Shown in pieces: positions 308 to 31,563 of a DNA stretch of 33,550 nt; the stretch's first letter is position 1; every line of letters begins with the position of its first letter. The stretch is taken from NCBI GenBank assembly GCA_001771275.1, contig METE01000002.1, positions 88,300 through 121,849 of the forward strand, written 5' to 3'. Source of the DNA: a candidate division Kazan bacterium RIFCSPLOWO2_01_FULL_48_13. Its GTDB lineage: Bacteria > Patescibacteriota > Kazan-3B-28 > UBA10110. The notes under the pieces are model-generated. The model was not told where the DNA came from. It did no database searches and saw nothing but the letters and a program-made list of their open reading frames with translations. A program made the translations under genes and the position numbers.

Positions 308-495
308 GTTACTTTTCCGAGAAAAGTAACCAAAATCTTCCGCCAGTCGCCCTCGCTCCTCATCAGATAAAATATAGCTTTCCGCCTCTCGCTGAACTCC
401 CCATCCCCAGTTTCTGGAACTGGGGGATGGGTCAGACAACAGCTTCGGCAGCGCTAATTTTATCGATTCGGGACACTCGGGCTCCAATGGCGGAA
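308..495. repeat. Long-hairpin element, copy 1
   Basis: Hairpin GTTACTTTTC/GAAAAGTAAC (308-330), nested IRs TTCCGCCA/TGGCGGAA (338-345/488-495) and GATAAAAT/ATTTTATC (366-373/457-464), core CTGAACTC-[hairpin 400-431]-TCAGACAACAGC. Confidence 0.7.
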
Positions 496-505
496 ATTAG
501 GCAAA

Positions 506-793
506 TTATTTGCCGATCATCAATTTGGCCAGTGAGTTAAACACATTCTGCAAAATAGGAACGATCCCTGGGAATAGTACGATCACCAGCACAAACCACA
601 GCCAGTTCTTTTTGATCAGATTCCAGAGAAAGGCGGCCAACGCCAAAATGATGATGATCGAGATTACCCATTGATACTTTTCGGGGAAGATCCCCACAAA
701 CTGGTTATAAATATTAAAGATCCTCTCAAAAAAACCGGTAGTGGCTTCTTCGGTGACTTTGTTGACGATGGTGTTGGCAATAGTGTTATTCAT
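506..793 (-). CDS. Small membrane protein, hypothetical
   Basis: 95-aa ATG ORF with two hydrophobic segments. Confidence 0.75.
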   Translation of the reverse strand: MNNTIANTIVNKVTEEATTGFFERIFNIYNQFVGIFPEKYQWVISIIIILALAAFLWNLIKKNWLWFVLVIVLFPGIVPILQNVFNSLAKLMIGK

Positions 794-826
794 ATCACTA
801 ATAATATTTTATCACAATATTCTTTT

Positions 827-1029
827 TGCCACCCCATCCGTCGGCTGACGGACGGGGTGGCACCCCAAAAGACACCCCAATCACCGATTGCTACCCAAAC
901 AGCAAAAACTGCCTTACTTAGCGCTATTGGCTGAACTCGGTCATCTGTCCATACAGCTGACCTCAAACAACAGCCGCGCCGTAGTGGCAGTTTTGCTATT
1001 GGCTAACGCAATTGGTTCAATGGGTCGTC
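827..1029. repeat. Long-hairpin element, copy 2
   Basis: Hairpin TGCCACCCC/GGGGTGGCA (827-862), nested IRs (AGCAAAAACTGCC 901-913 / GGCAGTTTTGCT 986-997 and others), core CTGAACTC-[hairpin 939-962]-TCAAACAACAGC. Confidence 0.7.
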
Positions 1030-1051
1030 ACAAAACAAAAATAACGTCCCT

Positions 1052-28610: not shown

Positions 28611-29887
28611 CTCGTTGTCTCCTCAGCTGCTTCTTCAACCCGCTCCACTTTAGCGCCCAGGGCTTTTAATTTATCGACGATCCGCTCGTATCCTCGATCG
28701 ATCAATTCAGCTCGGCTAATTACGCTTTTACCATCGGCGATCAGGGCGGCCAGCACCAGGGTGGCGCCGGCCCGGATATCTAAGCTTTCGATCTCTTTGC
28801 CATGCAAGGGAGTGGGACCAGAGACGATCGCCCGGTGCGGATCCAGAATGCTAACTGTCGCTCCCATCTTCTCCAGCTCGACAAAGTAGTTAAGCCGGCC
28901 ATCATACATCGTTTCGTAGATATTGCTTGTCCCACCCGCCTGAGTAAGCAGAATAGCAAACGGCGCTTGCAGATCGGTGGGAAAACCGGGGTAGATATCG
29001 GTACGAATATTAACCGGCTTCACTAAGGTAGTGCGATGAATCCGGATCTGATCAGTGCCAATCAGATCAAATTTAACATTGGCATCACGCAACTTTTCGG
29101 TAAAGATATCTAAATGGTCATGGGTATACCCCTTGATCAGCACATCGCCGTGAACTACCGCAGCGGCGATGGCAAAAGTGCCTGCTTCTAATCGATCAGG
29201 AATAACAGTTAATTCAGCACCGTGCAGTCGCTCGACTCCTTCGATAATTAATGTATGAGTACCAATCCCGCTAATCTTGGCTCCCATCTTGTTTAAACAT
29301 TCTGCTAAATTATTAACCTCGGGCTCAGCAGCAGCTAACCGAATTTCGGTAATGCCGCGGGCCAACACAGCGGCCATAATAATATTTTCTGTGCCAGTAA
29401 CACTCATCTCTCCTAAAACTATCTTGGCGCCAACTAATTCTGGCGCTTCGATGTAATAAAACTGGTTATCGGAGCGAACGGTGGCGCCTAAATTCTGAAA
29501 GGCCTTGAGGTGCACATCAATCGGTCGGGCGCCGATGTGGCAGCCCCCGGGATGAGTTACTTTTATTTTTTTAAATCGCGCCAACAACGGACCTAAAATT
29601 AAGACCGAGGCGCGGATCTTGCGCACCAAAACTAAATCCGGATCCCGACCATCAACTTTACTGCTGTCGACGGTTAACCTATTATTAGAGAAGCTGGTGA
29701 CGGCTCCCAGGCTTTCCAAGATCCGGGACAGCGTACGGATATCCTGAATATCTGGGACATTATTAATAACACACGGCTCCGAGGTCAACAAGGTGGCCGC
29801 CAAGATCGGCAGAGCGGCATTTTTGGAGCCGCTAACCGTTACCTCACCCGACAGGGAGTGCCCCCCCTCAATTATGAGTCTACTCAT
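28607..29887 (-). CDS. murA: UDP-N-acetylglucosamine 1-carboxyvinyltransferase
   Basis: SGSKNAALP, RAS, PGGCHIGARP (active-site Cys), PGFPTDLQ, DIRAGA, IDRGYE; ATG at 29887 with AAGGAG. Confidence 0.97.
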   Translation of the reverse strand: MSRLIIEGGHSLSGEVTVSGSKNAALPILAATLLTSEPCVINNVPDIQDIRTLSRILESLGAVTSFSNNRLTVDSSKVDGRDPDLVLVRKIRASVLILGPLLARFKKIKVTHPGGCHIGARPIDVHLKAFQNLGATVRSDNQFYYIEAPELVGAKIVLGEMSVTGTENIIMAAVLARGITEIRLAAAEPEVNNLAECLNKMGAKISGIGTHTLIIEGVERLHGAELTVIPDRLEAGTFAIAAAVVHGDVLIKGYTHDHLDIFTEKLRDANVKFDLIGTDQIRIHRTTLVKPVNIRTDIYPGFPTDLQAPFAILLTQAGGTSNIYETMYDGRLNYFVELEKMGATVSILDPHRAIVSGPTPLHGKEIESLDIRAGATLVLAALIADGKSVISRAELIDRGYERIVDKLKALGAKVERVEEAAEETTR

Positions 29888-29941
29888 GGCGATTTTCTCC
29901 TTTCCCTGACTACATTTTACCAGTAATTTAAACAGATACCA

Positions 29942-31342
29942 ATGAGGCAAAATTGGTGGGCACTAACAGGTTACACAGCGGCTGTTTTGGTGTTTATTGT
30001 CCTCGCTACCGGCGTTACTCTATTTGCCACCGGTTACAAGTTTGATTGGGGCACTAAGACACTCAAAAAGACTGGCTTCCTATTGGTAGAGACCTACCCC
30101 AAAAACGCCAACTTAAAAGTTGCCGGCAAAAAGACCGGCACTACGCCAATAACAGTAAAACGGCTGTTGCCGGGTGATTATTTAGTAGAGATGGGAAAAA
30201 ACGATTATCGCAACTGGACCGGTACTTTAAATGTTGAATCGGGGTTGGTGACTGAGAAACGCAACACTCTGTTAACTTTTAAAGAACTCTCTCCCAAAAT
30301 AATATTTGATAAGCCAGTAGACCTGCTGGCGGTTACCCCAGATCATAATCGAGCCGCGTTGGTAGTGGACAGCGAAATGCTGCTGCTAAACATTGCCAAT
30401 GGCTCCACCTCAAATATTTTAGCGCCGACTTTGATCTTGCAGCAAATTAAAGGCGCGGATGGTAGAGACCTATCTACCGCCAAGATATCAGCGATGGTGT
30501 TTGGTCCGGATAATCACGGGCTGTTAATCAGCGCCGTTGGCCGCCGCAACACCTACCAGTTGCTGTTAGATACCGACAACGGCCAGATGACACTACTGTC
30601 CAAGGGAGGATTAATGAGAAATGAGTGGTTAAATAGCAACCAGCTAACCTTCGCCCAGGTTGGCATCTTATATCTTTATCAGATGGGCGATAAAGCCCCT
30701 AAAATAATCCAGAACCAGCTAATCGACTACTCGATCGTGGAGGGAGCTATTTATGGGATAACCAGCGACGAGTTTGGCAAGCACTCTTTGTTGAGAATCG
30801 AAACGGATGGCAACAGCAAAATAGAGACCGCCGATCTGCCAGTAGCCAAGACTTACCAATTAGCCAGAATAGACGACAGCTGGATGCTAATTACCGGGAG
30901 CGGTGGCCCTCAAAGTATCTGGATGAGCGAGCGGGCCGAGGGCAAGATAAAATGGAACAAGTTTGCCAGTAATGTCACCTCAAGGGTGTGGTGGGACAAC
31001 AACTATCTCGCATATATTGCCGGCGGGGGCTTGATGGTGGCCGACATAAAGAAGGAGATCCAAGAAGCGGTGCGAGTAGCAGTCGCCGGCAATTGGCAGA
31101 CCCTGCACTTTAGTTTTGACACGCTGCTATTTGTCAGTAACGGTAAATTAAGCAGTATTGATATTACGGGGAAAAATCAATACCAACTATTGGAACTGTC
31201 TGCCGCCAACCAGGCCGAACCGATCGCTCCCCAGATTAGCCGACTGCTTTACATTGGCCAAGATAAAAAGCTATATACCGTAAACCTCCGGGACGAAACC
31301 ACCGGCCTGCTTAATCTAAATCCGTTTAACCCAATCGGCTAA
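29942..31342 (+). CDS. PEGA domain-containing membrane-anchored protein
   Basis: N-terminal TM, ATGYKFD..KTG.LLVETYP..A, TTP..LLPGDY.V..KNDY..W; beta-propeller-like remainder. Confidence 0.85.
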   Translation: MRQNWWALTGYTAAVLVFIVLATGVTLFATGYKFDWGTKTLKKTGFLLVETYPKNANLKVAGKKTGTTPITVKRLLPGDYLVEMGKNDYRNWTGTLNVESGLVTEKRNTLLTFKELSPKIIFDKPVDLLAVTPDHNRAALVVDSEMLLLNIANGSTSNILAPTLILQQIKGADGRDLSTAKISAMVFGPDNHGLLISAVGRRNTYQLLLDTDNGQMTLLSKGGLMRNEWLNSNQLTFAQVGILYLYQMGDKAPKIIQNQLIDYSIVEGAIYGITSDEFGKHSLLRIETDGNSKIETADLPVAKTYQLARIDDSWMLITGSGGPQSIWMSERAEGKIKWNKFASNVTSRVWWDNNYLAYIAGGGLMVADIKKEIQEAVRVAVAGNWQTLHFSFDTLLFVSNGKLSSIDITGKNQYQLLELSAANQAEPIAPQISRLLYIGQDKKLYTVNLRDETTGLLNLNPFNPIG

Positions 31343-31350
31343 CCGTTGTT

Positions 31351-31563
31351 TGTCATCCTCGGGCTTGACCCGAGGATCCAGGCCTGGATCCTGAATAAGT
31401 CATTTATAGTAAGCCTACGGCCCCAAAGGGGAGCCTTAGACTCTGGCGAACGGCGGGTTTTTATAAACCCAGCCAGGATCCGGGATCTTAAGATTCTTGC
31501 CGGAGTTTACCCTCGACTGCGATCGGGGGTAGGAATGACATTATAGGGTGCTCCGAAATGACA
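31351..31563. repeat. Composite REP-like cluster between convergent genes
   Basis: 31375-31421 matches the 21108-21153 element; GGAGTTTACCCTCGACTGCGATCGGGGG (31502-31529) is 25/28 identical to 12250-12277. Confidence 0.82.

Follow-up and report, generated by a model that had tools for sequence, protein, structure and literature searches.

Why should the same short palindromes turn up time and again in the loops of other hairpins, and in hosts as unlike one another as intergenic repeats, a riboswitch, and a tRNA-like sequence? The question is raised by a stretch of 33,550 nucleotides (nt) from the genome of a candidate division Kazan bacterium, RIFCSPLOWO2_01_FULL_48_13. This stretch, here called the window, comprises positions 88,300 to 121,849 of contig METE01000002.1 (G000:C2:88300-121849, G000 being the source genome). 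An earlier note on its sequence described four palindromes in such positions, named A, B, D, and G, and proposed a non-autonomous system of micro-insertions into loops or, failing that, loops as the only sites where they are tolerated. All ten copies that it listed (four of A and two each of B, D, and G) were found where it had put them. They were followed through the source genome (790,931 b in 20 contigs, including Ns; rated 97.5% complete and about 91% coding), through two congeners (G001 and G002), and through 38 further relatives. Our preferred reading, to which we assign a probability of roughly 0.55, holds A, D, and B to be mobile palindromes of very small size that settle on the tips of hairpins, of the same kind as the hairpin repeats of Ssn nucleases (Ssn-related motifs, SRM) and the intervening sequences (IVS) of rRNA, and G to be only a loop module.

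Palindrome A at hairpin tips

Palindrome A (TCCGTCRGCYGACGGA) is present in the source genome in 62 copies if two mismatches are allowed, in 56 if one is allowed, and in 49 exact copies. A degenerate form of the pattern has four matches in the window, and 100 shuffles that preserve dinucleotides yield no match. The claim that A always lies inside another hairpin holds as a statistical statement: with flanks of 10 nt, 41 of the 56 copies are enclosed by at least five base pairs, compared with 16.6% in a control of 1000 copies placed in silico at random between genes, and with flanks of 14 nt, 47 of the 56 are so enclosed, against 26% of the control. (These flank lengths replaced one of 40 nt, at which random flanks paired almost as often.) The copies are not independent, however. 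They fall into 21 classes of related flanks, nine with 15, 7, 6, 4, 3, 3, 2, 2, and 2 copies and 12 with a single copy; an ungapped alignment of flanks proved too crude, placing 10 of the 62 copies above the 95th percentile. When the flanks are oriented, the left one ends with AG in 14 of the 21 classes and the right one begins with CG in 14 of the 21. GTAG lies 5' of A in several classes, and TAAG, GGAG, TGAG, and CTAG are equally common.

Within A, the sequence varies only at two central positions of the loop or in a compensatory fashion. A variant palindrome, TCCGCCRGCYGGCGGA, with six copies (e.g., at C2:46162, C4:20506, and C4:98249), is A with a compensatory change of one pair, the stem being kept. 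Three copies of A are themselves interrupted by a double hairpin of 22-23 nt. At C2:26680, a copy of A links the left arm of a GCCACCC hairpin with the right arm of a hairpin of the H3 family described below, a layout that would be the expected product of a deletion between neighboring A copies; pairs of A about 100 nt apart are found at C4:9473/9575 and in the window at 837-960.

The abundance of A is peculiar to one lineage. The source genome has 49 exact copies, the congeners 2 and 3, and the 38 further relatives from 0 to 7; 32 of the 41 genomes have none, and the reversed pattern, used as a control, is absent from every one. G002 was fetched nearly whole for the comparison of gene order, and G001 was compared over syntenic pieces. 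Syntenic anchors in G002 were found for 34 of the 56 A sites. At two of these (C1:4022 and C11:59425, accounting for two of the three copies in G002), A is present in both genomes, so it must be older than their split. At seven others, G002 has at most 75 nt where the source genome has at least 158, and there the entire composite is therefore missing.

Replacement of tips in orthologous hairpins

The idea of micro-insertion into loops is partly supported, but where orthologous sites can be compared, it is the tip of a hairpin that has been replaced rather than a loop that has been entered. In four comparisons (a tip of 23S rRNA, P3 of RNase P RNA, a hairpin at C9:24356, and a relic of tRNA-Pro), a small hairpin is exactly replaced by A, with the neighboring bases unchanged. 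No duplications were seen at the replaced tips in the sites compared. Pure insertions do occur as well: TAG-A-C, read directly, lies within a T-loop-like TTC/GACT at three tRNA-like 3' ends.

The 23S rRNA gene of the source genome (C1:111186-115145, 3960 nt) carries A at position 711, flanked by AGTCGGAG and TGACGGCG. At this first tip, G001, which is 96% identical over 1497 nt, carries CCGGCCGCAAGGCUGG, a replacement of 16 nt by 16 nt. By comparison with the E. coli sequence, the site is probably the apex of helix 25, where IVS are classically found. Among 12 aligned relatives, hairpins of 12-16 nt are found there in five (G001, G003, G008, G017, and G019) and hairpin elements of 50-300 nt in six.

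RNase P RNA (Rfam class A) is encoded in the source genome at C1:56886-57655 on the minus strand (770 nt, 159 bits), and its orthologue in G002 is 501 nt long (195 bits). The tip of P3 is A in the former and GCUGGUAAAACAGC in the latter. In the same molecule, a D-like palindrome at model positions 89-101 corresponds to CAGGGGCAACCCUA in G002, D at positions 319-335 corresponds to CCCUGAUUUAUCAGGG, and P12 has 20-bp arms of D around about 290 nt, an insert that G002 lacks. At C1:57617, the flanks are about 90% identical between the two genomes and the tip differs (on the reverse strand, GGGAGGAAAGTCCGAGCACC). The hairpin at C9:24356 has the form GGCGTAG-cap-CGAAGACGG, the cap being A in the source genome and CTCGAAAGAG in G002. 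The guess that this hairpin might belong to a tmRNA found no support, as neither ARAGORN nor Rfam called an RNA gene at the locus.

The fourth case is of a different sort. In a relic of the 3' part of tRNA-Pro, A has taken the place of the T arm (CAGGTTCGACTCCTG), as judged by comparison with the intact copy 300 nt away. Since the relic is dead DNA, later trimming by selection is unlikely to have been the cause there. That the palindromes move independently of their flanks is borne out for A, D, and B, considering the single-copy RNAs whose orthologues carry other hairpins, the expansion of A, and the unrelated flanks found elsewhere.

Palindrome D and a GIY-YIG nuclease

Palindrome D is present in the source genome as 11 micro copies with loops of 5-6 nt, one copy with a loop of 95 nt, and one with a gene in a loop of 287 nt. 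Five of the micro copies cap H3 hairpins, five lie in or beside functional RNAs, and one lies elsewhere. One further case of nesting is a copy with D arms, both diverged, that encloses a pair of SRM hairpins. The earlier note had placed D at the apex of a long hairpin and inside a riboswitch. Both sites are as described, but in the riboswitch, D is the entire P6-extension hairpin, not an insert into it; the orthologous riboswitch in G002 has at P6 a pair of SRM hairpins between ACTATC and GATAGT. This riboswitch of G002 (extract L011 1845-2085) also has a 26-nt insert in the conserved GGTGCAAGTCC loop, and scores 25 bits, under the Rfam cut-off. In 23S rRNA, D occupies a second tip (positions 2208-2237), where 10 of 11 aligned relatives have hairpins of 10-24 nt, and a further copy occupies the stretch 47-78 nt upstream of the 16S gene. 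In the transcripts of RNase P RNA and the riboswitch, the D hairpins contain C·A mismatches; the opposite strand pairs better.

The full-length copy in P12 of RNase P RNA, about 330 nt, encodes a small GIY-YIG nuclease (54 bits), its open reading frame (ORF) bounded by ACCCATCTCCAGTTTTGGACA and TGTCCAAAACTGGGGATGGGG. Micro-D keeps the outer 13-15 nt of each arm, identical to those of the 20-bp inverted repeat of this copy, and joins them by 5-6 nt. D is therefore best seen as a collapsed, gene-less form of the nuclease-bearing element, and in this respect the notion of a non-autonomous system is sustained; for A and B, however, no autonomous copy was found.

There are 17 matches to the GIY-YIG family (PF01541) in 0.79 Mb, all over the family cut-off, and at least 12 of them lie in short ORFs (83-116 residues), with mutual identities of 28-78%. 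Nine of the pieces, run against NCBIfam, gave weak sub-threshold matches and no family over its cut-off. Relatives of the D-linked nuclease are found at only two distant loci (41-46% identity). Three more families of inverted repeats each have one or two gene-bearing copies (loops of 249-274 nt) and from 4 to about 15 gene-less ones (loops of 51-133 nt). At C1:80833, a GIY-YIG gene is flanked by two CGTCATTCTGG...CCAGAATC hairpins, SRM hairpins that are capped by A, and five other GIY-YIG genes are enclosed by inverted repeats of 15-22 bp. At C8:13255, a GIY-YIG gene and an intact tRNA-Pro lie between A-marked relics of an old tRNA-Pro. The link of A to GIY-YIG is nonetheless weaker than that of D.

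The pattern seen with D appears to be independently repeated in G015, a member of another family of the order, to judge from its 23S rRNA. There, an inverted repeat, CCCGCCAATTTAGAG, bounds an element of about 290 nt at the first tip, with an ORF that is GIY-YIG-like from a reading of its translation rather than from a profile scan, and the same repeat bounds a gene-less copy of 66 nt at the second tip. Another GIY-YIG element of the source genome (C6:879-1188), with CCCCGTAGAGAAATTTAGG as its bounds, is located where a gene begins, and the end of the element appears to supply the GTG start codon. The gene is presumably that for lysyl-tRNA synthetase, a reading made without a scan.

Other enzymes were also sought, as had been proposed. 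A GIY-YIG gene flanked by the arms of D answers to that proposal, but Y1_Tnp (PF01797), IS110, and OrfB_IS605 (PF01385) have no match in the source genome. In a control set of 14 genomes, the same searches found Y1_Tnp in 6, IS110 in 6, and OrfB_IS605 in 8. The sole match to the reverse transcriptase profile RVT_1 (85 bits) is at G000:C4:84730-85407, in an open frame of 382 residues.

Palindromes B and G

The source genome has 22 full-length copies of B, which starts with CCCCGTAG. Nineteen of them share an SRM-like host, and 15 SRM-like loops contain B. In G002, counts of 14-mers allow at most one copy, located in a tRNA-Gln relic shared with the source genome, and the SRM-hosted copies therefore represent an expansion in the source genome of one composite. 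The occupancy of loops by B in the source genome stems from this single amplified composite.

The shared relic is the sequence that had been described as the D-loop of a tRNA. The coordinates were correct, but the host is a 5' relic beside an intact tRNA-Gln, and neither ARAGORN nor Rfam calls a tRNA at the relic. B in this relic is kept in G002; G001 has at the same place a different palindrome, P (CCTGCCCGCGG..CGCGGCCAGGG; 30-37 nt), which it also carries in an SRM loop. Elsewhere, P is inserted after AAG/GAG in both G002 and G001 (extracts L020, about 14900-14940, and L025, about 7500-7560), and the site is empty in the source genome (atcacaag/tcgaccc, near window position 19538). The region from 19008 to 19522 is a cassette scar, in which the B-bearing 5' relic is followed by the intact tRNA-Gln, then by the 3' relic of an older allele, by a hairpin, and finally by what is left of a GIY-YIG gene. 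The arrangement is the same at the tRNA-Pro locus (G000:C8:13190-13715), except that its GIY-YIG gene is intact.

Palindrome G, consisting of an 8-nt tail and a hairpin, has eight copies in the source genome, two of them degenerate on one side. All eight lie in one family of host hairpins. G thus shows no independent movement and is a mere loop module of a single repeat family. One of its copies lies in a stretch (31342-31570) that is missing as a whole in G001.

Host hairpins and the extent of nesting

The hosts that had been called REP-like (after repetitive extragenic palindromes, REP) start with CGTCAT and their stems finish with ATC, the form of CGTC-tagged REPs and of SRM. A census of GTCAT followed by an 8-nt stem found 250 hairpins in the source genome and 53 in a shuffled one. 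Their loops fall into two groups: 72 of the 250 are of 3-7 nt, and the remainder are filled with further small hairpins, including A in 13 (plus two in 63-nt loops), B in 15, G in 4, and several other palindromes. One family with a 37-nt loop has a 58-nt version with an extra hairpin of 21 nt.

The second major host is the H3 family of long hairpins, recognized by a conserved asymmetric internal loop (TGAACTC-cap-TCARACAAC), with at least 20 copies in the source genome, two of them in the window (340-490 and 895-1020). Their stems vary by subfamily and the apical hairpin is hypervariable, the cap being, in one paralogue or another, A, D, two further palindromes (E and F), GGTCCGAnTnATCGGACC, some other small hairpin, or a 5-nt loop. 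A search of Rfam with the long hairpins (window positions 250-1150, E up to 1) gave only sub-threshold chance matches, so H3 belongs to no known RNA family. The relatives that share the A-bearing long hairpin carry the label candidate division Kazan. In the composite insert at 814-1089, the H3b hairpin is capped by E (about 940-965); the insert is missing in both congeners, with 5 nt between the same two genes in G002 and 0 nt in G001.

Nested hairpins are general across the source genome, considering the assortment of palindromes in loops and caps and the number of 14-mers that occur at least six times, 484 as against 89 in G002. As to empty sites in relatives, whole composites are missing and tips are replaced in the congeners; no polymorphic allele, empty or filled, was seen in Logan contigs of four DNA runs. 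Those contigs break at repeats, and the joints listed are uninformative, since they have sides of only 21-39 nt there. One Logan contig, from run X3, spans positions 6779-10942 without a difference, so that the copies of A at 6905 and of D at 10011 recur with the same surroundings in an independent assembly.

Occurrence in other phyla

The palindromes were also counted in species-representative genomes amounting to 596 Gb. An 18-mer core of A, GTCCGTCAGCTGACGGAC, is found at no fewer than 118 loci, about 9 being estimated by chance (596 Gb / 4^18). Among the 80 titles listed are members of Bacteroidota, Verrucomicrobiota, Acidobacteriota, Chlorobiota, Saccharibacteria, and Kazan. With flanks of 12 nt, 49 of the 118 loci listed have at least six enclosing pairs, against 18% of a control with mismatched flanks, and 28 of the 118 have at least eight, against 5.6%. 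Some copies cap terminator-like hairpins in Bacteroidota, and in a Mucilaginibacter metagenome-assembled genome (Bacteroidota), the 18-mer is P3 of RNase P RNA (167 bits).

B (31 nt) is found at a minimum of 106 loci (extracts L219-L324), mostly in Patescibacteria, with unrelated flanks and typically as YTG-B-T: among 105 loci, the left flank ends with CTG, TTG, or GTG in 74, and T follows in 71. Direct repeats of at least 8 nt, of varying length, some 8-20 nt, surround B in 16 of the 105, against 4% of the control. B seems to be an independent and widely distributed micro-element. D is found elsewhere at three loci, two of which cap H3-like hairpins.

A mechanism and its rivals

How might such elements spread? 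According to the preferred reading, D would be the collapsed form of a hairpin-bounded mini-element, with terminal inverted repeats of 13-20 bp around a single-domain GIY-YIG gene of about 95 residues, and A, and probably B, would behave like it. The elements would spread as DNA, landing on the tips of existing hairpins: REP/SRM hairpins, the H3 family, terminators, and variable helices of rRNA, RNase P RNA, and the riboswitch. The stem of the element would stack on that of the host, whose structure would survive, and since the one stem would continue the other, copies could be kept even though about 91% of the genome is coding. In the clean comparisons, the old tip has been exchanged down to the foot of its small hairpin. 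This exactness points to a copy-in event rather than to simple cut-and-paste: hairpin DNA in single-stranded form would be cut, presumably by a GIY-YIG nuclease, and then repaired on the template of another copy or through a switch to that template. The placement at tips, the independence of flanks, the lineage-specific expansion, the replacement of tips, and the tie between D and GIY-YIG are seen in the sequences; the cut by such a nuclease, the single-stranded substrate, and the copying are inferred. A bolder claim, which we regard as tentative and on balance doubtful, is that the overwriting of tips constitutes a distinct mode of DNA mobility, in which A, at 16-18 bp among the smallest of mobile elements, may overwrite, with a copy of itself, the apical stem-loop of whichever hairpin is exposed in single-stranded form. 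It would do so with no transposase of a known class, would have spread over at least 10 phyla, and would remodel helices of essential RNAs (P3 of RNase P in two phyla, tips of 23S rRNA) at unchanged length.

Several observations weigh against the preferred reading. The genes of the congeners are about 75% identical to those of the source genome, so that most events are too distant to date, and the search for a polymorphic allele was negative, as noted. With 15 of the 56 copies of A in a single flank class, most may have multiplied along with host repeats. The nuclease gene associated with D has a TGA codon at a conserved tryptophan and is probably dead now. No gene-bearing element with the ends of A or B was found, no half-A sites bound an ORF in the source genome or in G002, and a tblastn search with 13 GIY-YIG pieces had no match in the 118 A-bearing loci listed (with 200-nt flanks). 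Only some 4 of the 17 GIY-YIG matches have a copy of A within about 500 nt, about 1.4 being estimated by chance. In other genomes, B shows no excess at the tips of hairpins (23 of 105 loci, against 19% of the control). Finally, the nuclease SsnA, in the main text of its description, cuts a few nucleotides upstream of its hairpin and not in loops, and transposition is not shown (PMC11893778).

Might it be that the palindromes never move alone, and that only larger composites (SRM and H3 hairpins) multiply, their caps being shared by descent or recombination? Much in the source genome has this appearance: 19 of the 22 copies of B and all eight of G lie in one host family each, 15 of the 56 copies of A have a common SRM host, and whole composites are present or absent between species (814-1089, 31342-31570, and the seven A sites compared with G002), while the layout at C2:26680 resembles a deletion between two copies of A. 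But A and D lie in single-copy RNase P RNA, 23S rRNA, and riboswitch with no sequence of a host repeat around them, small hairpins have been exactly replaced by A, and the A 18-mer and B have unrelated flanks in more than 100 loci each elsewhere. For G the account stands; for A, D, and B the sites in single-copy RNAs contradict it, and as a general explanation it is improbable. Still harder to credit is that the placements result from metagenome misassembly through short repeats. The assembly does have 20 contigs with Ns, and Logan contigs do break at repeats, but elements of 16-32 nt are below read length, an independent run has a contig that crosses 6779-10942 with no differences, and like placements are found in other assemblies and in isolate genomes.

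Selection offers another route to the same picture, if the palindromes are functional modules (a protein-binding site, a hairpin that stabilizes or processes RNA, or a signal of the DNA-uptake type) that work at tips. The identity of the A 18-mer across many phyla, its capping of intrinsic-terminator-like hairpins in Bacteroidota, its role as P3 of RNase P in two phyla, and the restriction of its variation to two central loop positions or to compensatory change (the six copies of TCCGCCRGCYGGCGGA) would all make sense on that account. We think it unlikely all the same: two or three copies of A suffice for the congeners, dead tRNA relics have been overwritten too, the D hairpins of the RNase P and riboswitch transcripts have C·A mismatches and a better-paired opposite strand, a nuclease-bearing full-length D exists, and no candidate binding protein was identified. 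One might instead invoke REP-like elements moved by a tyrosine HUH transposase (RAYT, of the IS200/IS605 type) or by some other classical transposase, with a guide such as GTAG. The AG and CG that flank A (each in 14 of 21 classes), the frequency of GTAG, the start of B (CCCCGTAG), and the REP dimers inside palindromes that are described from three species in the main text of PMC3733652 would be in keeping with such an enzyme. There is little prospect of one, however, since no match to Y1_Tnp, OrfB_IS605, or IS110 was found in a genome 97.5% complete, the rve, DDE_Tnp_1, resolvase, and tyrosine-recombinase families lying outside that search.

Relation to known systems

The nearest known relative of what is seen here is the system of Ssn nucleases (SsnA, of the GIY-YIG type) with their NTS/SRM hairpin repeats, whose authors remark, in the main text, on a hairpin-gene-hairpin layout like that of insertion sequences (Chenal et al. 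2025, PMC11893778). Shared with that system, as described there, are small GIY-YIG genes of a single domain with cognate hairpin repeats on either side (e.g., at C1:80833; the published consensus is HGTCWY...stem...loop 0-5...stem) and hundreds of gene-less hairpins, the hosts in the source genome starting with CGTCAT in the SRM form. The published SRM loops are of 0-5 nt, whereas many in the source genome are of 15-60 nt and filled with palindromes. Here, too, the nuclease gene can sit inside the loop of its own inverted-repeat hairpin, and copies are found within rRNA, RNase P RNA, and a riboswitch. The proteins, which match PF01541 in short ORFs, may be members of the Ssn family (cd10448; single-domain GIY-YIG proteins of about 90-100 residues).

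CGTC-tagged hairpins (dRS3, RPE-4/6) have been described before, the CGTC REPs having no dedicated transposase according to the main text of that study (Di Nocera et al. 2013, PMC3733652). As in the source genome, REP dimers lie within longer palindromes in three species and REPs lie inside genes, but nesting is mentioned there only in passing, and that text has no cap common to unrelated hosts and no hosts that are structured RNAs. REP/RAYT systems have a Y1 HUH transposase flanked by the repeats and an unpaired GTAG tag 5' of the palindrome, and IS200/IS605 elements have TnpA, TnpB, or both, with subterminal hairpins; neither PF01797 nor PF01385 was found in the source genome. Like miniature inverted-repeat transposable elements, D has terminal repeats in common with an autonomous element, and for A and B none was found; no target-site duplication of fixed length marks the replaced tips, the DDE families not having been searched.

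IVS are extended stem-loops at the tips of helices 25 and 45 of 23S rRNA, from which RNase III excises them to leave the 23S in fragments. In the present set, such elements of 50-300 nt replace the variable 23S tip in 6 of the 12 aligned relatives. Short palindromes that insert in genes are represented also by the Rickettsia palindromic elements, the GC clusters of yeast, and the double-hairpin elements of Allomyces. The elements of organelles and Rickettsia, including RHE of sponge mitochondria, resemble those studied here in entering genes, RNA genes among them, where structure tolerates it, and in having no known enzyme of their own; their sequences and hosts are different, no nuclease-bearing full-length form is known from them, and the passages on RHE do not describe the replacement of tips (PMC2800124). 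Among the rRNA insertions of the candidate phyla radiation (CPR), as given in the main text of Tsurumaki et al. (2024, PMC11270868), all GIY-YIG proteins are in non-intron insertions, many short ORF-less insertions are uncharacterized, and most insertions lie at the top or base of a stem-loop. The elements at the first 23S tip are like IVS and the CPR insertions in being stem-loops that replace a variable tip, but here the same palindromes of 16-32 nt are common to rRNA, RNase P RNA, a riboswitch, tRNA relics, and intergenic repeats, and the helix gains no length from the smallest copies. In the literature covered, figures and supplements excluded, there is no description of micro-palindromes common to rRNA, RNase P RNA, riboswitch, and REP loops, nor of the replacement of tips; the logos of REP families (PMC3733652) and the supplementary tables of the other two studies (PMC11270868, PMC11893778) could hold sequences like A, B, or D.

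If the preferred reading is true, then abrupt changes between close relatives in the peripheral helices of rRNA, RNase P RNA, and riboswitches would be due not to drift but to selfish palindromes that invade and leave the fold intact. The Ssn nucleases and their repeats, the IVS of rRNA, and nested REP-like repeats would be united, and contig breaks and odd lengths of RNA genes in CPR assemblies would find an explanation. A and D, with their targets, are concrete substrates for asking whether small GIY-YIG nucleases acting on single-stranded DNA drive mobility, and natural pairs of hairpin and nuclease may be on offer for single-stranded-DNA tools.

Features of the window and minor observations

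Table 1. Coordinates of palindromes, their hosts, and associated genes in the window.
Feature	Position	Strand	Remarks
D micro-element	400..431		Apex of H3-family long hairpin (about 340-490)
Composite insert, 275 nt	814..1089		Hairpin GCCACCCCA-A-CGGGGTGGC, H3b long hairpin, and terminal hairpin
A copy	837-852		Caps GCCACCCC/GGGGTGGC hairpin; flank class of 4 copies
SRM/CGTC-type hairpin CGTCATCCTGG...CCAGGATC	6698..6756	+	B (6717-6747) in loop
SRM-type hairpin CGTCATTCTGGTAAG-A-CGCATCCAGAATC	6765..6808	-	A (6778-6793) in loop; class of 15 copies
Hairpin GTCATTGCGAG...CTCGCAATGAC	6850..6934	+	A (6905-6920) within 63-nt loop; independent contig agrees, 0 differences
Cobalamin riboswitch	9976..10106	-	Rfam 39 bits, cut-off 31.5; P6-extension hairpin is D (10011-10041)
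SRM-like hairpin, right arm degenerate	12238..12290	+	G (12250-12277) in loop
SRM-type hairpin	14733..14776	+	A (14748-14763) in loop; both congeners have other SRM pairs in that intergenic gap
Truncated GIY-YIG gene remnant	19008..19100	-	PF01541, 24.4 bits, positions 1-31; adjoins tRNA-Gln cassette
3' relic of older tRNA-Gln allele (T arm and acceptor end)	19258..19300	-	Read directly; matches tRNA-Gln allele of G002
Intact tRNA-Gln(CTG)	19328..19401	-	Between relics; ARAGORN/Rfam
5' relic of tRNA-Gln	19440..19522	-	B (19474-19504) at would-be D-loop position
SRM-type hairpin GATTCTTGCC-G-GGTAGGAATGAC	31490..31540	+	G (31502-31529)

Two further observations concern the rRNA genes of the source genome. 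The 16S rRNA gene (G000:C4:99147-101582; extract L082) is 2436 nt long and contains an insert of about 1 kb (extract positions 928-1942) that is missing in the 16S gene of G002. About 170 nt downstream of the 16S gene lies a match to group II intron domains D1-D4.

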